Source: a virus
DNA length: 64,000 nucleotides
Virus record (IMG/VR): IMGVR_UViG_3300023301_000006
Location: 8,424 to 72,423 of that record
Direction: 5' to 3' (one strand)
Below the pieces are notes generated by a model. It was not told the origin of the DNA and ran no database searches. It saw only the letters and a list, made by a program, of their open reading frames with translations. The position numbers were made by a program, and so were the translations under genes. Shown here piece by piece: positions 2,810 to 30,998 of this stretch; the first letter of the stretch is position 1, and each line of letters starts with the position of its first letter.

Positions 2810-5800
2810 TTATCTTACAGGACAGTGACCACTTTCACATCCTGCTCCATCGTCTATCTCGAAGTCCGAACCATCTTCATAATCTGATAGTAACTCTTCG
2901 TCGAACTTTGGAAGTTCTTGAACCATATTCTTGTATTCGTCTTCAGTTATACTCTCGAAAGGAAGTAACTCATAAAAGCTATCATCTAATGATAAGAAAG
3001 ATATTCCTACGAAACAATCCCAATTATCCCACAACCATTCCTCTACTAAGTCCCATTCATCTTTTCTAACATGGACAGTAATACTAGCATTATGGTCTAC
3101 GAATTCTTCCATTAATAATTTGTACTCATCCAATTGTTCAATTGCACCTACGTCGTACTTAGTCCTACCCTTTGGAGCTTTAACAGGAAATTCAAATACT
3201 TTCGTAGAATGCTCTTCTCTAGTTTGTCCTACTTCTGGCTTCCATTCGAATCCGGAGTCTATCATAGACATCGCAACAGGGTCTTTAGCTGATACTCTAA
3301 CTCTTCTTATATAAAAAGGACTATGTGACCAATGAATACCCGAAGAAGCACTGTTAGGTAATATTGAAACTGTTCCTGCTGGTTGTGCTGTTGTTACTAA
3401 TTCTGCTTTTGTTACATTATATTTCTTAGCTAATTCTTCATTCATGTTGTTTGCAACACTTCTCATGAATTTCAACAGCTTTTTCTTTTCATCTTGACTA
3501 ATATTTCCTTTGTTTATAAAGTCTTGATATCCAGTCATTGAAACGCCAATTATTCTATCTTCTCTTGCAACATCATCCCACTCCAGTAAGTCCAACTCTT
3601 GTAGACTAATAATGAATGCTATATAAGTTGCCCATTCTACTGATTGCTCTAATTCATCATATAATATCCCTCCTGATTCGTCTAAGAAAGATAACATGGA
3701 TATAATGGTTAAATTACAATGTTGTTTCGATTTTAAAAGTATTTCCGCACCTTACCACACTTACTTTCATAAGCCAACTTTAAGTTGTTGTAGTCTGGAC
3801 TATACCATATTACATTTAAGTAATGAGATATTATAGTCTCTGAACATCCCCTATAAAATAAGGTTTTGATGCTGATTGTCCAATTCATACAATTTTTAAC
3901 ATTCGCGTTTATAGTTTCCTATTACGCTGTAGTTTGTATGACTCTAAGGAGTTTCCAGCAGTTTAATCTCTTTTAAATCCACATGTTTGGTCTATGGATT
4001 AAGTCCTTCTGCGTCTGGTTTTCTTCTTTGAATCTCTTCTAGATTAGCTATTCCCACTTATATTAATCATAGACGCTATTCATATGACCAGTCCTTAAAA
4101 TGTAATAGGGACTGCTATATATTTCTATATAGGTTAGACTATATCATGACTCATTTGAGTCTCTTCCGCTTCGAATACCAATAACTTGTATTCTACTCCT
4201 TTTCAGGATAGTCGTTGAACTTTAACAGTGTTGGAAGTTACATGTAACACTATTCTTAGCTGCTGATTGTCTTTGCCATTACGCAGTAAGAGTTTCCAGC
4301 AATTCAAAAGATTTATAGAACCCAGTTTTTACTTTAGGCTCTCCAGAAACTTTCATAGTTTGAACATGCTCGTGTAAAGCCTCTCTTGCAGGTTTTTTCT
4401 TATACAGTACAGTGTTATTGCTCATTTGTCTATGTTTTATATCTGTGTCTATTTGCCATTTACCATTAACTTCTGTATATAAGTTAGTCTTTGCATTTCT
4501 TGTTTCGTAATCGTCAGCAGACACTAAGGCAATTTCAGCTGCTCTCCTTACCATTTATATTCGAACATGTTCGTTAGGCATATCCCGTTCTCCTATGAAC
4601 TGCTATATGTTGCCATATAGATTAGACTATATCTTCACTCTTATACATTTAAGCAAAAGAGGTTTCCTGTTTCCACTCACTTGAGTGTACGTCTTTCGAC
4701 TAGTCGTTGCACCTTTTATAATTAATCTTCTTTTTATTTTTTTTACCAATCTTCCTTACAGAAGATTAATTATAACTTGGCTCAGAATTGTCTTAAGATA
4801 CACTTAAGAGTTTCTCTGAATTTAAGAAATGTTTTTTTGTGTTGGAGGCATAAAATTTACCACCAACAACTATTGCTTCTGCTATTAAGCCATTAATATC
4901 TAACATATCAATAGGCTTTAGCTTAACTCTATGTCTGGTTATCTTACCACCGTTAGAATTTTTAATAATTCTGTCTATTCCACTAAAAGACTCTTTTAAA
5001 GGTATATGACCACTTGCTGTGCCACCAAATGTCTTTAGGACCTCTCCCGCAGGACGAACATTATCATAGTTGAATAAGATAGTTTTTATTAAACCATCAC
5101 TTGAACTAGCTTTGTAGTTGACTAAAAACTCTAAATAAATCTTTAATGATTCAGTCCAACCTCTTTTAGAATCTCCAACTACAATCTCTAGTATAGAATT
5201 ATTACTTAATGTCGTTGTTGTTAACTCTTGTCTAGCTAGTCTTGGAACAGGCTGATAGTCCTTGTGAATTATTTCTATGTCTTGTCTTACTGGTTGTATC
5301 TTTTCAACGTCTTCTTTCAGTATTCTATATCCGACACCACTACCCAACATTAATAAGTACATTGCGTCAACTAGGTTAAATATATCGTCCATTGTGACAT
5401 AACTACAATTAAAAGCACTTTGGAAATTTCTTTTAATGGATTCTGTCCCACCCGTATATCTGATTCTGCCAGAAGAAAATACTTTGAAATTGTACATCAA
5501 GTCAAATAATTCTTCTGCTTTCTCAGAGTCACCTTTGGGGTCTAACTCTATCATATAGTCCACAACTCTTGCGTTCATTTCCAACCAAGTTTCTCGTCTA
5601 TTTATGCCTTTAATAAATCTAGAGTATGTTCTATAGAAAGTAAATTTTGATAACTCTGAGTCAAATGGATTTGGGTCTCTAGCATAATCTCTTAAAAACT
5701 CTTTGTTCAAATATTTAAATTTCTTGTAAGGGTGCCACCTCTCCCTTATCTGTTTGTGCTTTTCTCTATATAATATAAAAGCTTTTACTACTTTGCCTTG

Positions 5801-6100: not shown

Positions 6101-6625
6101 TTACGCGAAAAGACTTTCCATTACCATATCTATCTTTTGATATAATTCTTCTTTTGTTGTGTCATTAGATATGTCAATCATTTCTTTGTTTTCCGCTCCT
6201 CTTTCTGATTCATGGTCAAATCTATTTATATCGCATGAACCATCTCTGTTTTTTACTCTTTGTTCTGCTAAGTCTAATGAAGCAGAAATTCTAATAGGTA
6301 AAAAGTTATTTTTTAATCCCCAAAGATATTCATTCTCTTGTCTTAAGTCTGATATAACTAACTTATCTGTTCCTACTAATTTTTCTATATCTTTTATCTT
6401 TCTCTCCATTTCATTTATCCAAACATCTTGGTCTAAAGAACGAAATCCCTCTCCTATAGATTGTAACAATACCCTATCTTTATCTTTCATATCGAAGTAC
6501 TGATTAGCTATCGTATAAATAGCTCCAGCAAAAGAAACTTTGGTATATCCATACTTATTAACTAAATAGTCTGCTACTGTATCTTTACCACATCCTGGGC
6601 TAGGTGAACTTAACATTATTTTCAT
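6101..6625 (-). CDS. deoxynucleoside monophosphate kinase
   Basis: PGCGKDTVADYL, RVLLQSIGE, VISDLRQENE, HESE. Confidence 0.85.
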   Translation of the reverse strand: MKIMLSSPSPGCGKDTVADYLVNKYGYTKVSFAGAIYTIANQYFDMKDKDRVLLQSIGEGFRSLDQDVWINEMERKIKDIEKLVGTDKLVISDLRQENEYLWGLKNNFLPIRISASLDLAEQRVKNRDGSCDINRFDHESERGAENKEMIDISNDTTKEELYQKIDMVMESLFA

Positions 6626-7196: not shown

Positions 7197-10100
7197 TTAA
7201 CTATGTTTCTCACTTCTCATTTCTAATTTTCCATCGTCTGTTATTTTTTCAATTAAGTAAACTAAACTTTGCTTTGTCCTGGAATAATCTTTCCCCCTAA
7301 AAGTGGTTTCGCTCGACCTATATCCAGTAATCATAATTTTGTTGCCCCTACTAAAAAAACTACTATCTATAATAGAGCTATTCTTTTTGACTTGTCTATC
7401 GTAGTACGCAAAATCAGAACCTTTAAACTTTACAGTAACGACTCCACTCCTAGTTAATATTTGAGTCATATGTTTATTCTTATTTCTGCTAAGGCAAGTT
7501 CCAATTATCGTTGATAAGTGAAATACTGGGTACTTGTCTTTCCAATAAAACTTCACAGGTTTTATTTTTAAGTCTTTAAATTTATCCACGAATGGATAAT
7601 ATTCATAGTCTATATAGTCTAATTCATTGTCTGTGGCATAATAGGATATAGAATCCATTTCCCATTTACCTATTGTTCCTTCAGTATAGTGGGACGCTTC
7701 TTCCACTATTATGATTTTATTGTACTCTTTTAAAAGTTCTTTTTCATTCTCTTTAATAAATTTTCTTAACTTATCTGCATCTTTCTCATAAGTAGACTCG
7801 AAAACTGATGACTCTACTAAATATTTGTCTTTCTTGTAAACAACTTTTAACTCTGGGTGTTCTACATTTAAAAATTCAATCATCATTTCTTGTAATGGAA
7901 AATATTTTTTGTCATCTACCTTTATTTCTTCGTTTGAACGTAGTATTTTTCTTAAGTACCACATTATTGAGCTATTCTTAACTTTTGTATTACTAAAAAA
8001 TTTAGCATCAAATAGTCCAGCCATATTCCTTAAAGACAAGGAAGTTTTTACCTTTGCTTTTCCAGCAATATAATCCATTAATAATTCTCTTCTGTCTTTT
8101 TCTTCAATGTTCCTGAAGGCATTTGACTTAATCAAGGATATATTTTTCCTCTTTGACGGTTTTATTCTTTTATAAAAGTCTCCATAGCTAGTGTATGGTC
8201 TACTCTCTACTATTTCAGTAACAAGGTCATCACCAACGTAAGACATTCCTTTTAGTCCGAATAATATAACTCCTCCATCAAAGTCTGGGGTAAATACATA
8301 TCCAGATTTATTGATGTCTGGAGGTGCTATTGTTATTCCAACTTGCTCCATATTACTAATTGCCACAGCTACTTTACCATAGTTAGAAGATGTGTTCTTA
8401 TCTCCATCTTGGTCTATTGCACCACTTTCAACTGTTAAACAAGCTGAATTCCAAGCTAAGTCATTATACTCATATGTTAAGTTTAAAATTTGCAAAGCTA
8501 TCATAGAATAAGGTAAGGTATGATTCCGACTAAAACTATCATGTTGTTCCCACATTTTTGTGGGCATGGACTAACTCTTTAAAGTTTAATATCTCTCTAA
8601 TAAGGTATTAAACTTTATCCACTGTTTGGAGAATAGGAATTTCACCTAAACTCTACTTCCCTTGCGGGAATAGTCTCTACACTCGCTTTCGCTAGCACGG
8701 GATTGTCATATCCATAAATGGACTTAGATTTCCCCGTTAGCACTAAATTAATAGTACACCCTATATTTATAGGTTAAGTGGAATGGGCAATTTTATTTAC
8801 CCAAGTTGAGGAACTACACAATGATGCCATACGTAATTTATTATTTCCTCTCTTGCTCCAGTTCTTTCCTTCGCTTTATCGAAGTAATCTTCTTTTAACT
8901 TATCTATTAATTTAGCTTTCTTCTTTGCTATGGCTTTTCTAGCCTTATGTGCCTCTACAACAGTAAAGCCAGATATGGATTCGTCCATTAGGATTTCCAT
9001 AATGTCTTCTTGTGTAGCCGCAATGCCGTAACTTTTATCTAAGTGTTTCTTCATTGTCATTATCTCATCTTCGTTTAAGCCTTGTAGGTGCATTTCTTCA
9101 TACCAAAGACTTATATCCTTTCTAAACTTAATAAACTTATCTAATGGTTGAATACTTCCTCCACTAGATGATAATCTCATTAATGAGTTTGCTGTTGCCA
9201 TCTCCACCAATGAATGAGGTGCTACTTCTCTTATGGCTTTAGAACCCACCATTGTATCAAATTGGAATAGAGAAACAATTTCACCTTTCGCAGCTTTGTC
9301 CCACATTTCTAAGTTGTCATACTCAAGGACAGCAGGAGATAAATACTTATCATAAGTCTCCCTTAGTGTTTCTTGTCTTTCCATCGCACCGTTGGTGATT
9401 AAATGATTCATAGTTATTCTAATTTTATCTAGAATCTTTACAGTTAAGAAGTCAAATTTGACTCCTCCCATATACATCTTTATCCTATGTTTCCACAGGG
9501 ACGGACTATTTCATGTTCTATTTTAAAATAGAACTCTTGCACTTCGACTGGGACAATATCCAGTCTACGCCTCTCGGCTAGTCTCTACATCTTTCTCTTG
9601 CTTCAATAATAGTTTTTATAAAGTTCTGAGGTTTTAAAAGCCCTATAAAGTTGGGAATGCCCCTTTAAATTTAAGTCTCTTAGGACTAAAGTTACTGAGT
9701 CATATACCTCAACTAGATTCCAATTGATATCATATTTGTAAACTTTTTTAGAACTTGTTGCACCGACATCAACTTTACCAATATTAGAACCAACAACTCC
9801 TTTTTTAGATTCACTTATTTTTTATTGTTATTTACACTATTATTAAAACTTAAGACTTGACACGAGATTGCCATATTGCCGAAGCAACTTAGGTTTCCTC
9901 GTTAGCTTAACCCCTTTAATAAGGATTAAACACCCTTTTTGTCGTAAGGTTCACAAAATTTACTATAACTCTCACAAGTTATAGGGACTATATAATTAAT
10001 CCGAATCTGACATGTCAAACTGAGTTGTAGGAACATCACTCGGAGACATCATCAAAGCATTCCTTTTATAATAAGGTTCATTATATATATAGATACCAGA

Positions 10101-11810
10101 GGCATGTATGCTTCTCTTGTCTATAATTCCCTCGAATGCTAATATCGTCTCCTGTAATTTTTTATCTTCATATTCTTCCAACTTAGACAAAAACTCTTGT
10201 TGAACTCCTCTTTCCTTTTCTCTATTGCCGAATATAACGTCTGCCAATGGTCAGTTAGCACCCCTCTCTTCTGGAACCAATCCAGTTAAATATAATGCTT
10301 CTGACTCCTCGATACCTAAACCACGACAAGCAGATGTTATACTACTCCTAGAGCCAATTGTTCCAAAGGTGGCTATGTTTAATACTCTATCTTCTCCAAA
10401 CTCTACATTTAAAGCCTTAAGTATTTGACCTCTCTGTGACTTTTGTGAGTCCAAGTCAATGTCCATAATGTCTGGTCTGTCTTTGTGGAGAAACCTCCAC
10501 CAAGGAATGTCCCATTTTAAAGGGTTTATTTGTATTATGTCTATCAAGTAATTTATTAATAATCCTGTTGCTGAACCCCTTGAAGGTCCTACAAGACTGT
10601 CTCCCTCTTCCCACATTATTTCAACTAATCTCTTTGTTGTCAATAAATAATTAGCCATATTCTTACCAATTCTCTCACTCGTTCCTAGTATATGTTCTAA
10701 TTCTACATCCACTCTTTGTAGTACTTCTTCTGTTGGTTCAATATCTTTTTTACTCTTTATTCCTCTTAACGTATGATAAATTAGAGCCTTATCATATCTG
10801 TCCTGGCTATTTAAGTATCTAGTAATATATTTGTACCCCTTAAACATTTCTTTTGTCTTAGAGTCAAATTCATGGTCCTCAACTGGAACTTTGGTTATAT
10901 CCACTGATTGAGCCAGACTAATATTCTGACATTGCTCTCCTATAATCAATGTATTTCTAAAGCATTCGTCTATTTCTTCTTCTGGAATGTGATTGTGCAT
11001 TATTTCCTTTATTTCTTTTTCTGACATCATATAGGTAAAACCATAAAAGGCATCGACCTCTCTCTCTCCTTCTTGAGATTGTAAAAAAGCTCTGTGAATA
11101 CTTCTATCTTCTTTTGACAGATAATGGGAGTCAGTAGTTATTATACTCTTAATGTCTTTCGAATCCCCTATTGATTTTATCATTCTATTCACCATAGTTT
11201 GTTCTTCTGATGTTGATGGTTGTAATTCAAAAAAGAAGTTGTCTTTCTCAAAAGCATTGATACACCATTCGATAAACTTCTTAATCCTATCTTGAGCTAC
11301 TGATTTTTCTATCTCACCATTATACATCCCCATTAAAGTATTAGGCAGAAAACCACCTAAACAAGCTGTTGTAGCCATTAAGTGACCTCTGTTTGTACTA
11401 ATAATTTCTTCTATTTGGGAATAAGTTATTGGAACTCTTCTCATTCCTCTATCATAGTAAGAATTGGTCCAAGCTTGAGACGATATCTTTTTTAATTGCT
11501 CATAACCGATTTCATCTTTCGCTATTAATATAAAATGATAATACTGTTGATTGTTCCCTAGTGAATCTACTAAATATATTTCGTCTCCAAAAGCCACAGT
11601 AAAGTTTTCATCTATAACTCCTTCTTCTACTAATTTGGTTCTATATTTGTCTGCTTTCACATGTGAGCTTAATACCTCATGGTCTGTTATTGCTAAACCA
11701 CTTAATCCTAGCTCTATTGCCCTATCTATTAAGTCTGTAACTTTATTTGTAGAGTCTGCTAGTCTTAAGTTAGAATAATCTGTATGATTGTGTGAAGAAA
11801 AATAATTCAC
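7197..11810 (-). CDS. dnaE: DNA polymerase III alpha (DnaE-type), 3 exons, one in-frame TGA, 1276 aa
   Basis: PHP motifs HNHTDYS, AITDH; GPSRGSA, DIDLD; exons 11810-9999, 9474-8799, 8539-7197; joins DSD|YMGGVKFDFL and QLG-Y-SFSRNH; TGA at 10251 in ERGAN*PLADV. Confidence 0.9.
8540..8798 (-). mobile_element. group I intron 2 of dnaE (259 nt, no ORF)
   Basis: GGG T|AAA...ATG|AT AGT; core GTAGAGACTA ... AAGAGTTAGTCC. Confidence 0.9.
9475..9998 (-). mobile_element. group I intron 1 of dnaE (524 nt) with a homing-endonuclease remnant
   Basis: GAT|TAA...ATG|TAT boundaries; core GTAGAGACTAG ... GAAATAGTCC. Confidence 0.88.
9564..9821 (-). pseudogene. C-terminal remnant of an intron homing endonuclease (NUMOD3/NUMOD1-like DNA-binding modules)
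   Basis: Frame reads KISESKKG...KKVYKYDINWNLVEVYDSV...YKNYY*SK; no start codon and no catalytic domain. Confidence 0.65.
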
Positions 11811-11890: not shown

Positions 11891-13633
11891 TTAAAAAACG
11901 AAAGAACTACTTGCTTTTATCTCACACTCATCTACGATAATTTGAGGGACAACCTTACCATTTCACTCATTCGTGTTCGGCTTACCTATTAAACTAATTT
12001 CAAGGGAGTTACCATTTGGTATATTTGCAATTATTTCCTCTGCTCTAAACATTATATACTCAACACCATTAAAAATAATCTTTATAATATTAGATTTCTT
12101 TCCGATTAGTTGTAGCTCTGATGCGTCTATTTTAATATTAGATACCATAATCTTAGGCTCTCTCAATCTAGTTCCCCAAAGGTGTTTCATATCATTTAAT
12201 TTAAAGATGTACTCGCTACTTACTTCAGTGGAGTCCATTAAGAAGTCTATGCTAAATACTTTTTCAAAATCATAGTCTTTTAATAGGTTGTTACTTAGCT
12301 CTATTAATGGTTTTATATTTTCTGGTTTTATACAAGTTCCGAAAGCTGCTTGATGACCTTCTGCGTATTCTACTAAACCAGTATTGTTTAAGTACTTCTT
12401 AAATTCATTTAGTTTTGTTCCAGAGGGGCATCTACCACTACCATAAAATAAACCGTCTTCTTCATTCTTTAAAAGTATTAAAGTTGGTCTATTATACTTG
12501 TCTTGTATTTTATTGGCAACTAGTCCAGTCATAGACCGCTCAATTATATTAGTCGCATTTAAGATTATAACTTTATTTCCTAATTGGTCTTTCTCAACTA
12601 ACTGTGTTAATTTTTTCATACCATTAGTTTCTGCCTTCTTTTGTCTTATCTTAATATTACCTGCCATTCTAGCCATTTCCTTTTCAATGAATACTAGTTG
12701 TCCTTTGTTGTTTCTACCAGAACCTATTACCTTACTACCGTCTAGTATAAATGCTTTAAACATCATAATCTTCTCTTGCATATTTCCAAGTCTAATGACA
12801 GCATTTATCAATGGAGCTATATAGAACATTATGTCTATTGGATAAACATTGTCACCCAAAGAGTAGCTCTTTTTCTTTATTAATGCCTTGATGAATAAGT
12901 TTCCTTCAATATCATCATTCATTAATTTTACGCCTCTTCTGACTATTACAATATTATCTCTCAACCTCATGTCCATATTATCTGAGGCTATCCCTAATGC
13001 TGCTAAATCTACTAACTGTTCTGAGAAATTAATACTATTTACATCATCTAGTGCTTGACAAAATTTAAACGCAACTCCAGCTCCACTTAAGAATTTATTG
13101 TTGTAGTCTGGAGATAATTGGTTGTTAACCACCATTGCATATTCAGATTCTTTACTTGCTTCATGGTGGTCTAGTACAATAATACTTGTACCAGCGTCTG
13201 AGAGTTCTTTATGCTTTTTATATTGACTACTACCCGCATCTGGAATTATTACTAAGTCATATTCTTTCATCTTTTCAAGCTCTTCTCCATCTGGTAGTCC
13301 TACTTCTTTGTTTTCGTGTATAAAAAAGTCCATATCAGTAAGATTATAAACCTTATATAAATACTTTCATATGATAGATGCTGAGGTATAACCATCAACG
13401 TCACTATCTACTACTATCATTACTTTTTTGTCACCTTGGCTAAGTTGTTCATCTAAGAACACAGATGTCTCTTTAAGATTCTTTAACCTATACTTATCTT
13501 CTTCGTAATCTACGCTTGTGTCTTCTCTACTTAAAAATATGTTAATATCATCTGGACTTACTCCTCTTTTTAAAAGTAAATCCTCTTGAATAGAACTAGA
13601 AAGTCCTACTAAATTGTCTAATGAAAATTGCAT
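11891..13633 (-). CDS. recJ: RecJ-like DHH ssDNA exonuclease, two in-frame TGA, 580 aa
   Basis: DSDVDG, PDAG, LDHH, GSGR, GHQAAFG; TGA 13367 (SASII*KYLY) and 11963 (NTNE*NGKVVPQII) join the fragments in one frame. Confidence 0.88.
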
Positions 13634-15003: not shown

Positions 15004-18000
15004 TTAAAAGGTTTCGCTAGGGACATCCTCTGTACCCTGTTGTCTTTTTTTCTGTTCATTCTCAATAGTTATTACTGTTGACTTCATTGGTATTAATTCA
15101 TATTTCGAATTAGTGACAAATAAATCAGTTATTCTACACGTTCCCAAATCTGCTATCGACCATAATTTTACGCCCTTGTACTTAGAACGTCTGTTCTTGT
15201 ATACATGGAACACTATATTAGGTACTTCTAAGAAATTCTCATCTAAGATATGGGATATAGCTTTAATATCTTTTTCTGTTGGTTCTAAAGCAATTATTCC
15301 AACATCAATTTTCGTTTATACCGTCACTTTCGTGATATTTAATACGGACTAGACTATATCTGCACCTCCCTAGATGGGAGGGACTGGCTCTTCGTAATAA
15401 GGAATTACACCTTAAAACTACTCCCTTTATTGGCTGGGATAGTCGTTACACCTTTAACTAAACTTGGCACGGGATTGTCATAGGATTTCTCCCTTAGAGT
15501 TTCCCCGTTAGCACTAAATTAATAGCACACCTTACATTTGTAAGTTCACCAGTACCTAACTACGCCATTGCTGACATAGACGACTCTAGTTTACTTTTTA
15601 TTCGCATAGATTTATAATATTTTCTATGCTACTTACTTCTATTTTTTTTCAATTTCAACACACCTTTCTAAGATGCGAATAAAAAGTTATTCAAATCTGC
15701 CATTGATTTTGCCGTGTTACTCTTGTGTTTCCACAAGCACTGACTATCTCTTACTCTCCTACCAAGGAGAGAATTTCTGTTTCGGTTCTCAGTAGTTTAA
15801 TTACTTAAAACTACGTTACTTATCAATAGTAACCCTACTTTCCATCTAACTGGAAATAGTCGATACAGCGACTTACTTAATACATTATTAAGTAATATGC
15901 CACGAGATTACCATAGCTCTCACCTTAGGCTTCCTCGTTAGCTTTAATTTGTTAAATTAAAACCCCACTTGATATGCGGATAAGAAATTTAGTGGCGTAA
16001 AAACACCACGTAATAAATTTTGTGTAGCTTGGTCTACTTTATCCCAGTCACCATTAACTTGCGTAGCAGTATATATAAAGACTCCTAACTCATTGGCTAT
16101 CTTCTTTAATCTACTTACAAACATCAACAGAACATTATCTTCTCTTAGTCTGACTCCTCTACTGGCAGAAGCAATTTCGGCAAGTATCTTTAAAGTAGTG
16201 TGAACATAATCGAAAAATACATAATGTACATCATGCTTTAATTTATGTCTCGTTACCATATTGTCTACTTGTTGAATATTATGATTAGACAAGTGTTCTA
16301 TCCAAATTGGAGCTCCCTTTATGATGTGTGCAGCTTCTATTACCCTTTCCTTTTCTCCTTCGTCATATTCTCCATCTAATATATGTGCCTCATTTACATT
16401 TGAGACAAAGGCAAGGAATAATGTTTGTATCTCTTGTATTTCTAGCTCTGTAGTAATAAATAGTGATGGCATACTTATACCATTAGATACTCAATCATTT
16501 TTCTTTGAGTCCCAAACTTTATCTACTGCTAGGTTTATAGCATCTCCCGCACTGAATCTAGTATTGTGAGTTACAATATAATCATTCATTAGGAACAAGT
16601 GTTCATCGTTGTCAACTGTAAAACAAGTCATCTCTGTAGAGAAACCCATTTTTTCTATATTTACTATTGGATTATAATCTTTATGCTCTTTTCTTTTTAA
16701 CGTTAAAACATACTTATTCGCAATATTTAATTTTCTAGAAAACCTAAATACTTTTAGCTTATCTTCGTGTGGCATTTGTATATTAATTTTATAACAAACT
16801 CCTGTAGAGTATTTATCTCTTATGTCCTCTATGATTGTTGGTATATAACCAAGACTTCTAGCTAAACTCACAACGTCATCTTTAAGTTTTACACTAATAG
16901 TGTGATAAGCAACTCTTCCTTTTTTATCTATTGAGCCATCTGTATCAAGAAGCCCCTGTAGTAGGCACATTCTTTGGTCTATAGACCCCAATAAATAGTC
17001 GTCAGGAATAAATTTATCTTCACTTTTGGCATTCCATAAGTCTTTGTAACCTATTGATTCTTCAACAGAAATTCTGTTGTTAGTGTTTTTTTCTTTCCTA
17101 AAGAACCAAGAATAGTTTTCACTTTTTTCTTTCTCATAGTGCCACCCCTCTAATTTGGACATTGTAGATATTATTTCTTCATCGGCAGCAGAGAACGTTA
17201 AATCTCTTCTTCCACTTACATACCTGAAACTTCCATCTCCCAATAGTGCTCCAAAAGTGTAGGGTTTAAGTCCATATTCTTTTTCATTATACTCAACTGC
17301 ACCATTTATCGGAACTTTAAAAGTATACCCACTTGTTCCTTTAAATCCACCAAGAGATTTAGCTTCTTCGAGTATCTGCTTAGTAGTTTTTGTCTTATGG
17401 GCACATCTTCTATCTGTAAAATATTCCCATAAGTGTTCGTCACATGTTTCGGCAACTCTACCATCAGCGAAAGTAACTTTGTTTATTTCTTTTTCACTCT
17501 CTTGCGGATGGACGCCCACTACTTTTGTTGGCTTTCCATTTCTTCCAAAAATGTAAGAACCAATTTTTACCTCATCAACCCTTTTAAATCCTTCTGGAGT
17601 TGGTATCTTAGTATAGTTTGGGATAGCCTTCCCCACACCAGTAGGAGCACTTCTCATATAGAGTTTTTTAAGTCTTGCACCTCTTACGATACCGTTTATA
17701 TAACTGCCATTTAAAGGTAGTCCAATTGCAGGTTTTTCTAATAAGTCATCTATTAAACCAACAATATTTTGACCAGCTCTTTGTCCATAACTATCTGCAC
17801 TCATTTCAAAGCTTTGTCTAACCTCTACTATCTTCATGTCTACTAGATTAATTATTTCATTTATAGACATCTTGTCTAAACCATTTTGCATTTTTTCTTT
17901 CTTGTCTGAATTAAGTTCGTCTGGGTCATATATAAATCTTATGTCTACCCCAGACTTCAAATAAGCCCTCAATAAAGAGAACTTTTTTACACGATTATAG

Positions 18001-18332
18001 TAATACACAAAATTGTCTCCATCAGCACTATTCTTTGCAAATTCAAGAGCTTCTAGTCCTCTATTACTCCGAAATATTTCATACTGCTCTGGATACTTAT
18101 TTAAATAACTGTCTATCGCAATAGAGTCCAACCTATCCACTCCAGAATTAACTAAATTATTTATCGCAGAGAAAACAATTCTATGATGTCTTGCTACAAA
18201 ATCTGACACCTCTAATTTAAATCTATCATGTTTTAATAATGTTGTTGGGTTGTTCAAAAGAGCACCAAATAACATTAATACTGCTTTGTTGTCGTACAAT
18301 TCTTCTATATTTATATCTTTAAAACTACTCAA
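15004..18332 (-). CDS. dnaB: replicative DnaB-like helicase with intein, in-frame TGA and two introns
   Basis: Walker A SAPTGVGK|T, FITTELE, FFDYVH, ATQVN, KNRRS; exons 18332-16005, 15712-15695, 15312-15004; joins LLRG|AKSMAD|KIDVG; TGA at 16491. Confidence 0.88.
15313..15694 (-). mobile_element. group I intron 2 of the helicase (382 nt)
   Basis: GAT|T...G|AAA; core GTAACGACTATC ... AGATATAGTCT; enlarged 5' region. Confidence 0.85.
15713..16004 (-). mobile_element. group I intron 1 of the helicase (292 nt)
   Basis: CGT GGT|G...G|GCA; P1 GTGGT/GCCAC; core ATCGACTAT ... AAGAGATAGTCA. Confidence 0.88.
16563..17627 (-). mobile_element. intein with LAGLIDADG endonuclease (355 aa, Ala1, class 3 signature)
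   Basis: Starts AIPNYTKIPTP after GVGK, ends IVTHN before T; DEHLW, MTCFTV; ALLGDG and GLLDTDG. Confidence 0.9.
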
Positions 18333-26923: not shown

Positions 26924-27210
26924 GTTATTGACAAATTACTATAATTTTGATATAATACAAGTATAGTAAAAAAATAAAACATATTAAATAATAATACGAA
27001 AAAAAGTTATTGACGAATTACTTATAATATGATATAATATAAGTATAGTAAAAAAATAAAACATATTAAATAACAATATGAAAAAAAAGTTATTGACAAA
27101 TTACTTATAATATGATATAATATAAGTATAGTAAAAAAATAATATGAAGAAAAAAATGAGAAGAAGTTGTTGACAAATTGAGTAAAATATTATATAATAT
27201 TTATATAGTA
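26924..27210 (+). promoter_or_regulatory. four tandem SigA-type promoters (about 80-bp repeat)
   Basis: TTGAC(A/G)-N17-TATAAT near 26927, 27010, 27093 and 27170; the first three have an extended TG and near-identical flanks. Confidence 0.85.
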
Positions 27211-27688: not shown

Positions 27689-27819
27689 TATCAACCTTGA
27701 CAAAAGCACAAGAGTGTGATATAATACAAACATGGTCTTTTAAAATTTAGTAATAACCACAACTAACCCAGTGAATAAAAAGTTTAACTAGCTTTTCTGG
27801 GACATATAGAAGATAGAGA

Positions 27820-28295
27820 GGTACGTTCTAAGGATATTTTGAATGTATAATCTTTTGCAGATAAGTAATTAAAAGCGAAAAGGAAGAAACTTCCAATTAT
27901 AATATGTGTTGCAAATCTATTATTGTACTCAAAAGTACAAACCTAGTCGTTGTAATAATCCGTCTTCTAACCGAAGATAACCTAAAATCTAGAGCCTATG
28001 GACGGCTTGTAGGGACTTAGGAATCCAACGAATACAATCAGTCTTGAACAGAGGAAACTCTGGTATAAGATTAGAATTTGGTGCAAGTAGCCCTATGACT
28101 AAACAAAATTGGAATAACTTAAAATATAAAGTTATCAAGATGAATAGCGGGTGAAAGTTGCAAGTACACAATCTTGCTTAGGATTTTATTGGGGTAGAAA
28201 GTATGGGGGTAGCTCCTCTGTGCTCATCCTACTCTGCCTAGTGACTGAATATGATATGGTAATAGACTTGTAGAGTGAAGATTCAGTTGTGATTA
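27820..28295 (+). ncRNA. probable ROOL large ncRNA (ends approximate)
   Basis: About 500 nt with no credible gene, after a promoter and before tRNAs; segments recalled as ROOL-like: GTCTTGAACAGAGGAAACTCTGGTATAAGAT, GTGCAAGTAGCC..ATGACT, AAAGTATGGGGGTAGCTCCTCTGTGCTCA, GTGACTGAAT. Confidence 0.65.
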
Positions 28296-28322
28296 TTACT
28301 AAGTTTTAAAAGACTTGTTAAT

Positions 28323-28391
28323 GGGGGTGTAAAGAGGTCGACAGGTGCTTTAGTATACTGGACATGAGTTTAATTCTCATCACCTCCACCA
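28323..28391 (+). ncRNA. minimal tmRNA-like RNA, tRNA-like domain only (69 nt)
   Basis: GGGGGTG/CACCTCC-A-CCA with G3:U70; stemless D-loop ending TCGAC; GGAC then T-arm ATGAG/CTCAT; no tag ORF or pseudoknots. Confidence 0.8.
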
Positions 28392-28398
28392 TAAACTT

Positions 28399-28473
28399 GG
28401 GAATATAGTCAAGCGGTTAAGACACTACACTTTCACTGTAGTATCGCAAGTTCGATTCTTGCTATTCTCACCA
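28399..28473 (+). tRNA. tRNA-Glu(TTC)
   Basis: Cloverleaf, CTACA-CTTTCAC-TGTAG, CCA. Confidence 0.85.
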
Positions 28474-28527
28474 TATACCTTTTCCCCTTTGTTGTGTGGG
28501 AAATTAAATATAGCACAACTACATTAT

Positions 28528-28602
28528 TGCCCTTTCGTCTAATGGTTAGGACGCCAGACTTTCACTCTGGAAACTTGAGTTCGACTCTCAAAAGGGTAAC
28601 CA
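28528..28602 (+). tRNA. tRNA-Glu(TTC), second divergent copy
   Basis: CCAGA-CTTTCAC-TCTGG, CCA. Confidence 0.88.
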
Positions 28603-28607
28603 AATAA

Positions 28608-28693
28608 GGAGTAGTATGCAAATGGTTAAGCAAACGGGTTGCTAACTCGTGGCGGTTAAACGCTTGTAGGTTCAAGTCCTATCTACTCTTCCA
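28608..28693 (+). tRNA. tRNA-Ser(GCT)
   Basis: ACGGG-TTGCTAA-CTCGT, long variable arm, CCA. Confidence 0.88.
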
Positions 28694-28697
28694 ATAT

Positions 28698-28775
28698 GTA
28701 AATATAGCTCAGTTTGGTTAGAGCATCTGGTTGCCAATCAGAATGTCGTGGGTTCAATTCCCACTATTTACTCCA
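28698..28775 (+). tRNA. tRNA-Gly(GCC)
   Basis: TCTGG-TTGCCAA-TCAGA, CCA. Confidence 0.88.
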
Positions 28776-28781
28776 AAATAA

Positions 28782-28858
28782 TGCAGAGTGGAACGTTGGT
28801 TTTTCCATCGAGGCTCATATCCTTGATTACATGGGTTCGATTCCCATCTCTGCATCCA
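28782..28858 (+). tRNA. tRNA-Met(CAT)
   Basis: CGAGG-CTCATAT-CCTTG, acceptor TGCAGAG/CTCTGCA, CCA. Confidence 0.8.
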
Positions 28859-28861
28859 TAA

Positions 28862-28953
28862 GGAAGGTTACTCAAATGGTTATACGAGCGTAGCTTTGAA
28901 AGCTAATGTGTCTGAAATACGGCTTGGGGGTTCGAATCCCTCACCTTCTTCCA
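28862..28953 (+). tRNA. tRNA-Ser(TGA)
   Basis: TAGC-TTTGAAA-GCTA, long variable arm, CCA. Confidence 0.85.
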
Positions 28954-28959
28954 AAATGT

Positions 28960-29034
28960 GTATGTATAGCTAAAAGGCTTAGCATTCGGCTGTTAACCGA
29001 AAGTATATTGGTTCGAATCCAATTACATACGCCA
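28960..29034 (+). tRNA. tRNA-Asn(GTT)
   Basis: TTCGG-CTGTTAA-CCGAA, GCCA end. Confidence 0.88.
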
Positions 29035-29035
29035 T

Positions 29036-29250
29036 AAGTCCCACTATGAGGGCATAAAGGCTTTGATGGAAACCCCATCTGAAAGAGCGTATGGAAGCTC
29101 TAGTGTCTAAATCACATTAGTTTATAGATACGACATTTAAAAACAAATTTTTAAGAAATTGAATTGTGATAGCCTATTAAGACTAAGGGCTTAAAATACA
29201 GAGTCTCACCATTGGCGGCAACCGAAAGTCGTGGGCTTAATTGCCCTTTC
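29036..29250 (+). ncRNA. unidentified structured RNA in the tRNA cluster
   Basis: Long-range pairings AAGTCCCAC/GTGGGCTT and AGGGCA/TGCCCT plus several hairpins; no ORF. Confidence 0.45.
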
Positions 29251-29305
29251 AAGTTATTAGGAACCCATTGGGGCTAAAGGTTTAAAATAGATAGTCCTAT
29301 TATAA

Positions 29306-29376
29306 CTAGGTGTGGGATAATGGTTGTCCGCTAGCTTTGGGAGCTAGTGACGGGGGTTCGATTCCTCCCACTTAGA
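29306..29376 (+). tRNA. tRNA-Pro(TGG), CCA not encoded
   Basis: CTAGC-TTTGGGA-GCTAG; acceptor CTAGGTG/CACTTAG. Confidence 0.85.
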
Positions 29377-29501
29377 AGTGGATATAAGTATATTGTATCT
29401 AGTTCTAAGTGCACAATAGTTTTGAGTAAATAAAAAAATGTTGTTGCAAGATTATTCATTTAATGATATAATATAAGTATAGAAAGAAATAAAAAAAATA
29501 A

Positions 29502-29578
29502 GGTCGTCTAATCCAACTGGCAGAGATAATAGGTTTAAGCCCTATCAAGTGTGGGTTCAACTCCCACGGCGACTACCA
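29502..29578 (+). tRNA. tRNA-Leu(TAA), short variable loop
   Basis: ATAGG-TTTAAGC-CCTAT, CCA; own promoter at about 29445-29475. Confidence 0.82.
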
Positions 29579-29585
29579 ATAATAA

Positions 29586-29659
29586 TGTGATATAGTCAAG
29601 TGGTAAGACAATAGACTTTGAATCTATCAGCCTTGGTTCGAATCCAAGTATCACAACCA
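29586..29659 (+). tRNA. tRNA-Gln(TTG)
   Basis: ATAGA-CTTTGAA-TCTAT, CCA. Confidence 0.88.
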
Positions 29660-29828
29660 GAATGAAGGAGTAGAGGTCGCACCTCGAGGTAGGATGAAAG
29701 CTATCCGTAAAGGGAAAGCGGATAAATATCTCTGATTGATAGTTAGAGAAAAGTTTTTTGTAGTCTTAATAATACCACCAACGCATTGGCTCTAAACGTT
29801 GAAAAAAATATAGAGAGCCATTAAGTAT

Positions 29829-29903
29829 GGTGGTTATAGCTCAATGGTAGAGCACATGGTTGTGGTCCGTGCTACTTGGGTTCGATTCCCAATAATTACC
29901 CCA
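29829..29903 (+). tRNA. tRNA-His(GTG)
   Basis: CATGG-TTGTGGT-CCGTG, G-1:C73, CCA. Confidence 0.88.
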
Positions 29904-29907
29904 ATAA

Positions 29908-29984
29908 GCTCCAATAGCTCAATCTGGTAGAGCAACTGCCTTGTAAGCAGTAGGTTGTAGGTTCAATTCCTATTTGGAGCTCCA
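29908..29984 (+). tRNA. tRNA-Thr(TGT)
   Basis: ACTGC-CTTGTAA-GCAGT, CCA. Confidence 0.9.
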
Positions 29985-30020
29985 AAATCTTTTCCATACC
30001 AAAGGAAAAGTGTTTAATAT

Positions 30021-30105
30021 GGTATAGCTGAGCACTGGTGAGCTCCGCAGACTGTAAATTTGTCGTCGAAAGGCTTTGTTGGTTCAACTCCAACCTATAC
30101 CACCA
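30021..30105 (+). tRNA. tRNA-Tyr(GTA)
   Basis: GCAGA-CTGTAAA-TTTGT, variable arm, CCA. Confidence 0.85.
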
Positions 30106-30110
30106 AATAT

Positions 30111-30186
30111 GTTCCAGTAACTCAGTTGGGAGAGTGTCTGCCTTACAAGCAGAAGGTCGTAGGTTCGAGTCCTACTTGGAACACCA
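30111..30186 (+). tRNA. tRNA-Val(TAC)
   Basis: TCTGC-CTTACAA-GCAGA, CCA. Confidence 0.9.
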
Positions 30187-30192
30187 AAATAT

Positions 30193-30267
30193 GCGGATAT
30201 CGTATAATGCTTATTACCTCTGGCTTCCAACCAGATGACGAGAGTTGAATTCTCTCTATCCGCTCCA
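30193..30267 (+). tRNA. tRNA-Gly(TCC)
   Basis: TCTGG-CTTCCAA-CCAGA, CCA. Confidence 0.88.
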
Positions 30268-30290
30268 AATTACTAATAGGAGGCAAAGAA

Positions 30291-30383
30291 ATGTGAATAT
30301 GTGAAAAATGTTCAAAAACTTATAATTATCGTCCAAAAGATGATATTTGTGAGAAATGTACTGCAGATTGTTATTTTCAATAA
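30291..30383 (+). CDS. 30-aa Zn-ribbon peptide beginning ATG-TGA
   Basis: AGGAGG RBS; with TGA=Trp reads MWICEKCSKTYNYRPKDDICEKCTADCYFQ. Confidence 0.6.
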
Positions 30384-30401
30384 AAAGGAGGAGGTACTAC
30401 A

Positions 30402-30722
30402 ATGATGACTGAAGAAGAATTATTTGAAGACTTTGACACTTGAGAAGATAGGTTCTTAGAAGCTTACGAAAATGGTGTGAAATTTGATGAAAGTCTTATG
30501 GGAAATTTAGCTTGGGAAGCAGAAGTACAAAATGAACATGACAAGCTTCGTTGGCAAATAGTAATGGAATCTATATTCCAAGTCAAGAACAGATACTTTT
30601 GTATTGACTGGCAAAAAGGTTTAACAGAGAGCCAAATAGATTCATTCTCAGAACAACCATATGAAGTTGAGAAGATAGAAAGAGAAGTTACTAAGATGGT
30701 TGTTACTTGGGTAAAGAAATAA
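30402..30722 (+). CDS. hypothetical protein with in-frame TGA, paralog of 2269..2601
   Basis: GGAGGAGG RBS then ATG 30402; TGA 30441 in frame with ORF 30477..30722. Confidence 0.72.
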
Positions 30723-30730
30723 CCATATTA

Positions 30731-30807
30731 GGACCTGTAACTCAGTTGATTAGAGTATTCGACTCATAATCGAACGGTCATTGGTTTAAATCCAATCAGG
30801 TCCACCA
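30731..30807 (+). tRNA. tRNA(CAT), probably Ile2 (lysidine type)
   Basis: TTCGA-CTCATAA-TCGAA; GGACCT acceptor as in Firmicute tRNA-Ile2; CCA. Confidence 0.75.
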
Positions 30808-30900: not shown

Positions 30901-30998
30901 GAGAGTGTATAGCAGTGAAGTACTGTGGCGGTCTTCAAAACCGTACGGCTGAGGTCCAAACTTGGTTTATGAGGGAGCGTTACCTTCCATTCTCGCCA
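30901..30998 (+). tRNA. UGA-decoding tRNA (anticodon TCA), probably Trp
   Basis: Acceptor GAGAGTG/CATTCTC-G-CCA; anticodon arm GCGGT-CTTCAAA-ACCGT; long variable arm; T-arm GAGGG-AGCGTTA-CCTTC. Confidence 0.82.

Follow-up and report, generated by a model that had tools for sequence, protein, structure and literature searches.

A tag-less phage tmRNA reduced to its tRNA-like domain, with a ROOL RNA in front and a tRNA array behind, and the family to which it belongs

What is left of a transfer-messenger RNA (tmRNA) when its messenger part is missing, and what could a phage do with the remainder? This question is raised by a 69-nt element at 28323-28391 (+) in a stretch of 64,000 nucleotides from IMG/VR virus record IMGVR_UViG_3300023301_000006 (positions 8,424 to 72,423 of the record), which in its entirety is referred to here as the window. 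Trans-translation is the main bacterial system for ribosome rescue and protein tagging, and a drug target. A first-pass annotation, made from the letters alone, described the element as a tag-less "mini-tmRNA" that retains nothing but its tRNA-like domain (TLD). Our analysis bears out this identity, places the element in a family found almost entirely in phages, and suggests what such an RNA may do in the infected cell.

The letters of the element read GGGGGTG / TAAAGAGGTCGA / CAGGTGCTTTAGTATACTG / GAC / ATGAG TTTAATT CTCAT / CACCTCC / ACCA and agree exactly with the features first described for it, namely tmRNA-like ends, a G3:U70 pair, a stemless D-loop and a 19-nt hairpin. The 5' strand of the acceptor stem, GGGGGUG (28323-28329, +), pairs with CACCUCC at 28381-28387 over 7 bp, with the G3:U70 pair formed by 28325 and 28385. 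It is followed by a stemless D region of 12 nt, UAAAGAGGUCGA (28330-28341, +), which ends in UCGA and so supplies the first four bases of the tmRNA signature UCGAC, the last C (28342) being the first base of the hairpin. This hairpin, CAGGUGCUUUAGUAUACUG (28342-28360, +), comprises 19 nt with seven pairs, one bulged A and the loop UUUA, and occupies the place of the approximately 300-nt pseudoknot and tag region. The GGAC signature and the T arm AUGAG UUUAAUU CUCAU (28360-28380, +; a 5-bp stem and a 7-nt loop) come next, with U at position 3 of the T loop where C is expected, and the gene closes, as read from the sequence, with a discriminator A and an encoded CCA (28388-28391, +). G3:U70 is the alanine identity element, the UCGAC/GGAC platform is the tmRNA-specific site of SmpB binding, and EF-Tu requires a 12-bp stack of acceptor and T stems. 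The stack is intact in the window copy, and the features for alanylation (G3:U70, A73 and CCA) are all present.

An Infernal search with the tmRNA model, which the first-pass annotation had proposed as a check, aligned the element to Rfam model RF00023 from end to end, though below the gathering score. The alignment spans model positions 1-374, with the two ends of the element on positions 1-22 and 341-374 and 318 internal positions replaced by 13 nt; its score is 36.2 bits (E 1.4e-13) when 141 nt are searched and 44.8 bits for the whole record. Like canonical SsrA, the element has a 7-bp acceptor stem with G3:U70, a discriminator A followed by CCA, a stemless D loop with UCGAC, GGAC ahead of the T stem, and a T arm with a 7-nt loop. 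Unlike canonical SsrA, it lacks the mRNA-like domain (resume codon, tag open reading frame (ORF) and stop), only 19 nt lying between UCGA and GGAC, and in the RF00023 alignment the pseudoknots PK1-PK4 and helices 2 and 5 are missing. ARAGORN called neither a tmRNA nor a tag at 28323-28391. A motif pattern built on the features of the element matched the window once and matched 0 of 100 dinucleotide-preserving shuffles, and BLAST of the 69 nt, or of the surrounding 1-kb region, against 50,697 phage records returned only matches to tRNA-Glu or noise. Based on this alignment, together with the family model and the covariation set out below, we conclude that 28323-28391 is, by homology, a tag-less tmRNA reduced to its TLD.

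The kind of molecule is already known. "Mycobacterium phage DS6A (TLD only)" was catalogued by Hudson, Lau and Williams in 2014 (PMC4131195; tmRNA Website tmID 11587), and a database paper of 2025 repeats the entry and adds plastid tmRNAs of about 65 bp without a coding sequence (CDS) (PMC11915505). The first-pass annotation named the tag-less tmRNAs of mitochondria but overlooked the published phage precedent. Among the passages covered, the literature records DS6A as the one phage TLD-only tmRNA, and in our literature search a family of mini-tmRNAs spanning phages was nowhere described; the supplementary phage lists of two papers (PMC11915505, PMC9004378) may hold more examples.

A covariance model of the family, R1, was made from 88 sequences including the window copy, with DS6A and a close relative of the window locus (L204, described below) left out. 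It scored the window copy at 59.5 bits (partly by construction), DS6A at 59.4 bits and L204 at 59.6 bits, and its next best match in the window was a tRNA-Met at 28.3 bits. The DS6A copy occupies 28478-28560 of JN698994 (979-1061 of L207), where GenBank has no feature, between gp33 and the DNA polymerase III gene gp34. It resembles the window copy as a phage-encoded TLD with a short helix, a G3:U70 acceptor, UCGAC/GGAC and no tag frame. It differs in measuring 83 nt, in belonging to a longer class with an inner hairpin, in its 69% G+C, in ending with ACUA and in standing alone between protein genes, whereas the window copy, flanked by a ROOL RNA and a tRNA array, has 69 nt at 46% G+C, its hairpin is plain, its CCA is encoded and its T loop reads UUUAAUU. 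The window copy is phage-encoded, falls within 64-85 nt, has a short joining helix and no tag ORF, and has helices that show compensatory changes across the family; judged by these sequence features, it belongs to the DS6A-type TLD-only tmRNAs.

Two further groups of known RNAs invite comparison. Mitochondria of jakobids and oomycetes and plastids of Mallomonadaceae have CDS-less tmRNAs that show the same cut to a TLD of about 65 nt (PMC11915505, PMC4131195). These organellar forms are vertically inherited and served by a dedicated, imported SmpB, whereas the window RNA is viral and would share the host SmpB with the full tmRNA of the host. Full-length phage tmRNAs, recorded for Bxz1, Wildcat and Bacillus phage G (PMC4131195) and as two-piece forms from marine phages (PMC9004378), occupy the same niche, that is, phage RNA-gene islands, but unlike the window copy they keep the tag ORF and the pseudoknots.

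The pattern GGGG-N11-TCGAC-N5-35-GGAC-N5-TTNNA-N10-CTCCACCA was used to scan for the family and matched at least 120 IMG/VR stretches, against nine stretches in prokaryotes (one genome each from 185,579 species), eight of which are contigs of metagenome-assembled genomes (MAGs). The matches listed from both collections give a family set of 129 loci with 87 distinct sequences. Its members fall into two size classes, one of 64-68 nt with a plain hairpin, the type to which the window copy conforms, and one of 74-85 nt, in which the helix leads over an A-rich 5' bulge, frequently UAAR, to an inner hairpin; 18 distinct sequences begin one G further upstream and have a D region of 9 nt. In the longer class (for example, L049 1365-1446) the A-rich bulge is placed between the helix that follows UCGAC and the inner hairpin of 3-4 bp, and is not always a stop codon. 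With RF00023, every above-threshold match in a sample of 48 virus records carrying mini-tmRNAs measures 64-84 nt, and no full-length tmRNA was found in these records. The window copy is the weakest and most divergent member seen: all 48 sampled others pass RF00023, at 50.2-81.1 bits, and a narrow pattern of the window type (T loop TTTAATT, acceptor GGGGGTG) matched no other viral contig. ARAGORN has calls at no more than 7 of the 129 elements, labelling three "tmRNA", two "tmRNA*" and two "tRNA-Glu", so that annotation by ARAGORN alone would overlook most copies.

If these elements are indeed folded as TLDs, their helices should covary, and covarying homologs in related phages were what the first-pass annotation had suggested looking for. 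They were found, and all three helices covary. In anchored pair counts, which are set on the invariant motifs with no fitting of an alignment and compared with 1000 shuffles, pairing is kept in 261 of 264 cells of acceptor pairs 5-7, with covariation; in all 440 cells of the T stem, where positions 1-4 show 3-5 pair types; and in 420 of 440 cells at positions 1-5 of the helix after UCGAC, again with covariation. None of the 1000 shuffles reaches the observed values. When 100 members were aligned with the model, 97.7% of cells were paired (shuffles: 70.2%) and 12 of 18 pairs changed on both sides. The covariation score of this alignment, 0.710, was reached by none of 500 shuffles, which score 0.152, and sliding the partners gave no more than 0.133. 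It should be noted that this alignment was fitted to the structure and hence leans towards it, a bias of which the anchored counts are free.

The D and T loops also change together. The D loop has GA in all 13 distinct sequences with U at position 3 of the T loop, among them the window copy with GA at 28334-28335, and GG in 54 of the 74 distinct sequences with C at that position. Such a tertiary signal is what a tRNA-like elbow would require. The family is thus large, supported by covariation and, as far as its sequence distribution tells, almost entirely restricted to phages.

When positions 3 and 70 were left free in a rescan, they were G and U in 119 of the 120 matches listed and in 76 of 77 distinct sequences. 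The single exception looks like a register shift, and neither G-C nor A-U was seen at pair 3:70. This rescan reads the collection in the same order as the first scan, and most of its matches are loci of that scan. Since G3:U70 is kept while the neighbouring pairs vary freely, its conservation indicates selection for alanine identity, that is, for charging by alanyl-tRNA synthetase.

Is the window copy itself maintained? A search for related loci with an alignment of a neighbouring 130-aa protein returned three metagenome loci and no viral ones, of which only L204 reaches the RNA island. L204 is a metagenome contig whose copy of this protein is 93% identical, and it repeats the order of the window: ROOL (293.5 bits), a 19-nt spacer, a 69-nt mini-tmRNA and tRNAs. 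Identity to the window is 91.9% in the ORF, 92.3% in ROOL and about 90-100% in the adjoining tRNAs, and only 12 of 19 bases (seven changes) in the spacer before the mini-tmRNA, which itself retains 68 of 69 bases. The sole change, 28354 T>C, turns the hairpin pair G25.U32 into G-C and shifts the TLD fold from -17.5 to -19.5 kcal/mol, leaving the rival minimum-energy fold unaltered. A search of sequencing runs listed no RNA run carrying this stretch; DNA contigs from four further runs (X2-X5) cover 27700-29100, with ROOL, mini-tmRNA and tRNA, at about 93.5% identity. In a 63%-identical relative (L206) the gene is followed at once by tRNAs; its contig of 1083 nt holds neither ROOL nor a mini-tmRNA but is too short for the module to be called absent. 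At the level of sequence comparison, these relationships show purifying selection on the mini-tmRNA in this lineage.

These data bear on the possibility that the element has no function at all and is either a decaying remnant of a full-length phage tmRNA or an attP-type fragment of host ssrA. Full tmRNAs do occur in phage tRNA islands: L179 carries one of 312 nt at 3426-3737 (+; 107 bits, ARAGORN tag GNYSYAMAA) in a tRNA array 2 kb after ROOL, and an 81-nt mini-tmRNA in L125 (1467-1547, -) has the same acceptor stem, GGGGTCG/CGACTCC, and the same T arm as this full tmRNA. Because the two share these parts, the minis probably derive from phage-borne full tmRNAs by internal deletion, with loss of the middle. 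One ROOL-linked copy, in L158, looks degenerate (55.6 bits, odd T loop); L181 repeats the ROOL and tRNA layout of L158, with no mini-tmRNA match listed in it. However, ongoing decay fits poorly with sizes tightly kept in two classes and covariation in all helices, or with the near-identity of the L204 copy between flanks that are about 92% identical. The first-pass annotation had reasoned that relatives with a full tmRNA and a variable deletion would speak for simple decay; this was not seen, L204 keeping the 69-nt form and all 48 sampled family members being short, with no full-length tmRNA in their records. For an attP fragment, both halves of the acceptor stem would be needless, yet both are present and covary, and no integrase (PF00589) was found in the 72-kb record, which is itself incomplete. 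We therefore regard a functionless remnant as highly improbable.

Which function, then, is conserved? We propose that the 69-nt gene encodes a functional TLD-only tmRNA that would act, once charged with alanine, as a competitor of host tmRNA for SmpB, and we give this reading a probability of roughly 0.55. The RNA would be transcribed from the strong promoter-like site ahead of ROOL within a precursor that also holds ROOL and the tRNAs, cut at G1 by RNase P in the manner of a tRNA, with its CCA end already encoded, and charged by the host alanyl-tRNA synthetase, which would recognise G3:U70, A73 and CCA. It would then bind host SmpB through the UCGAC/GGAC platform, drawing this protein away from host tmRNA and, together with EF-Tu, contending for stalled ribosomes, and the outcome would be less ssrA tagging and degradation in the infected cell. 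The RNA would have to use the SmpB of the host since no SmpB gene (PF01668) was found in the record of the window; none was found in the 48 sampled mini-tmRNA virus records either, including the eight that are at least 90% complete. A TLD-only molecule is stated to inhibit trans-translation in two papers (PMC4131195, PMC11915505), both pointing to Mao et al. 2009. The roles suggested in the first-pass annotation, an SmpB decoy or a rescue RNA that adds no tag, both agree with what these papers print on the DS6A-type molecule. The size of the family, its covariation, its near-restriction to phages and its well-kept alanine identity pair together suggest that phages commonly act against the ribosome rescue of their hosts, or exploit it, in a way that has been little studied.

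Several observations weigh against the competitor reading. Energy minimisation favours another fold, at -21.9 kcal/mol, over the TLD fold at -17.5 kcal/mol; as the two folds differ, the TLD fold rests on homology and covariation and not on thermodynamics. The T stem of the window copy is AU-rich, and both of its RF00023 scores stay under the gathering score of 47. Moreover, the strictness of G3:U70 exceeds what a passive sponge for SmpB would need, and the cited inhibition is independent of chargeability (PMC4131195). Such strict conservation suggests that the RNA may act on the ribosome, which blurs the line between competition and tag-free rescue. On-ribosome action deserves real weight, since the features for charging are strictly kept and a TLD-only tmRNA has been studied in vitro for peptidyl transfer (PMC3895274).

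The corresponding alternative is productive rescue without a tag, in which the alanyl-mini-tmRNA, with host SmpB and EF-Tu, would enter a stalled ribosome and accept the nascent chain, after which a stop-independent release factor or drop-off would free the ribosome and leave a product with one added alanine and no tag. The near-invariance of G3:U70 when positions 3 and 70 are left free, the retention of A73 and CCA, the intact 12-bp stack and the peptidyl transfer to a TLD-only tmRNA in vitro (PMC3895274) all fit this possibility. So do the organellar CDS-less tmRNAs, which are thought to act with a separately encoded SmpB on incomplete mRNAs (PMC11915505), and the in-frame TGA codons in the replication genes of this phage, where pausing could be frequent. 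Lacking a resume codon, however, the ribosome would keep a peptidyl-mini-tmRNA over an empty A site, and the sole functional statement published on such a molecule is one of inhibition (PMC4131195, PMC11915505). We hold tag-free rescue to be a serious but unlikely explanation and continue to favour competition for host SmpB.

The immediate surroundings of the gene in the window add to this picture. A sigma-70-type promoter-like site, TTGACA-17-TATAAT with a TG extension, lies at 27697-27725 (+); it matches all 12 hexamer positions and is a consensus match only. ROOL RNA (RF03087) begins 18 nt downstream and extends over 27743-28303 (+), with 293.2 bits against a gathering score of 99.1 and model positions 1-574 covered. 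The mini-tmRNA starts 19 nt after its end, no terminator-like site being found between the two, and a tRNA-Glu begins 7 nt past the mini-tmRNA as the first member of a tRNA array (28399-30807, +) with 15 ARAGORN calls and one Rfam-only tRNA. ARAGORN missed the tRNA-Gly(UCC) at 30193-30264 (+; Rfam 57.8 bits), whose anticodon loop CUUCCAA was read by eye. Given the promoter-like site, the absence of a terminator-like site and the tRNA-Glu 7 nt on, a single precursor cut by tRNA-processing enzymes is the simplest reading, and the promoter-like site at 27697-27725 probably drives ROOL, mini-tmRNA and tRNAs as one unit. Four promoter-like sites of the sigma-70 type with 12 of 12 matches lie within 800 nt (26928-27198 and 27697-27725, +), the last directly before ROOL.

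Kretsch et al. 2025 (PMC12286853) describe ROOL as an RNA of phages and prophages whose function is unknown and whose genes lie "often near tRNA islands". The setting in the window is the same, but a tmRNA-type gene beside ROOL is not mentioned in the passages of that paper covered here, and our literature search found no paper dealing with both ROOL and tmRNA. A first ROOL motif pattern gave seven stretches, none of them ROOL by Rfam, and was dropped. A second pattern gave 57 IMG/VR stretches, which are pattern matches; the five that were checked with Rfam are all ROOL. Beside ROOL, mini-tmRNAs occur 51 nt behind it in L182 and 1.36 kb behind it, with three tRNAs between, in L164. Adjacency to ROOL thus recurs but is not the rule.

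Such an arrangement might mean that the element is no more than a processing signal, an RNase P substrate that sets the 3' end of ROOL and has no role of its own in trans-translation. The spacings of 19 nt in the window and 51 nt in L182 would suit this, as would the many ROOL-pattern loci with a tRNA on the same strand directly behind (+200 to +360) or in front (near -400). The L164 copy, by contrast, is far from ROOL, and 104 of the 129 family loci are without a tRNA in the fetched DNA, where ROOL was not searched for. Furthermore, any tRNA would do as a processing signal, the tRNA-Glu being only 7 nt away, and neither UCGAC/GGAC nor G3:U70 would be needed. A role in processing alone is therefore very unlikely in our estimate.

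tRNA islands are often read as counter-defence, and the mini-tmRNA sits in one. It could accordingly be a decoy for a target other than SmpB, such as a nuclease or defence factor by which the host recognises tmRNA or tRNA-Ala, or it could be a regulator of RNase R; phage factors that act via tRNA or tmRNA fragments and RNase R do exist (AcrIIIA1; PMC11662646). Clustering of the 2,230 ORFs within 2.5 kb of the 129 minis revealed no widely shared neighbour gene, with no cluster in more than 19 loci, and the broadest cluster by distinct elements, in a set of unannotated clusters, covers 15 loci and 11 elements. This lack of a conserved neighbour argues against a defence-related decoy, as does the fact that the conserved features are exactly those of the part of tmRNA that faces SmpB and alanyl-tRNA synthetase. 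We consider a target other than SmpB quite unlikely, and competition for SmpB remains the reading we prefer.

Does the genetic code of this phage explain why it carries the gene? The source of the window is a linear IMG/VR virus record of 72.4 kb, estimated to be 48% complete; the window has 32.6% G+C, and its DnaE-type polymerase shares about 43% identity with the polymerases of SPbeta-like Bacillus and Enterococcus phages. The first-pass annotation had remarked that a tag-less tmRNA would suit a phage whose ribosomes pause at recoded UGA. In-frame TGA codons are indeed found in three replication genes: at codon 520 of 604 in the DnaE-type polymerase (9996-11810, -), where the TGA is crossed both by the Pfam domain DNA_pol3_alpha and by an alignment to PDB 2hpi; at codons 89 and 557 in RecJ (11891-13633, -), where the DHH domain spans the first; and in the DnaB helicase (15957-18332, -), where the DnaB_C domain continues past the TGA. 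TGA is the terminator of only 8 of the 87 ORFs called with table 11. Coverage by stop-codon read-through is uninformative alone, whereas domain alignments across TGA codons are informative. At the end of the tRNA array, a weak tRNA-Sec-like match at 30901-30994 (+) has the anticodon UCA (loop CUUCAAA) and, in a search of 231 nt, reaches 24 bits (E 0.009) where the gathering score is 47; it was missed by ARAGORN and by Rfam at the gathering threshold. We regard it as a candidate reader of UGA, and the phage probably reads UGA as sense.

To this extent the remark on recoding stands. As a general reason for the family it does not, since most members lack tRNA genes in the DNA that was fetched. 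Recoding may be why this phage keeps its mini-tmRNA, but across the family nothing speaks for such a link in general. What the window adds to the known kind is the most divergent member seen, its place directly behind ROOL, an abundant nanocage RNA, and a promoter, ROOL, mini-tmRNA and tRNA array in one row in a phage that probably reads UGA as sense. It is therefore a concrete system in which to ask whether ROOL, phage tRNAs, a code change and interference with rescue cooperate.

We speculate, and think it improbable, that the promoter, ROOL, mini-tmRNA, tRNAs and candidate tRNA(UCA) form a single early transcript for the take-over of translation. The alanylated mini-tmRNA would then work on the ribosome instead of serving as a passive sponge: with host SmpB it would seize ribosomes that stall in the UGA-containing replication genes of the phage or during read-through of host messages, and end their chains untagged, perhaps with repeated template-free additions of alanine, and ROOL would act in the same ribosome-directed pathway. 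Repeated additions are conceivable because each round would leave an empty A site of the kind that SmpB recognises.

Some further observations concern the family and the phage record. One contig (L130) carries two mini-tmRNA-like genes 84 nt apart, at 6146-6224 and 6308-6373 (+), scoring 54.6 and 71.1 bits. It has 22 tRNA genes and is filed under an archaeal MAG, and is probably a misbinned phage contig. In the window, the DnaB-like helicase (15957-18332, -) contains a LAGLIDADG domain (PF14528, PF05204; residues about 450-519) in an intein-like position between its N- and C-terminal parts, and an ORF resembling ribonucleotide reductase has two group I introns next to it, at 4115-4386 (-; 94.8 bits) and 4603-4868 (-; 71 bits).

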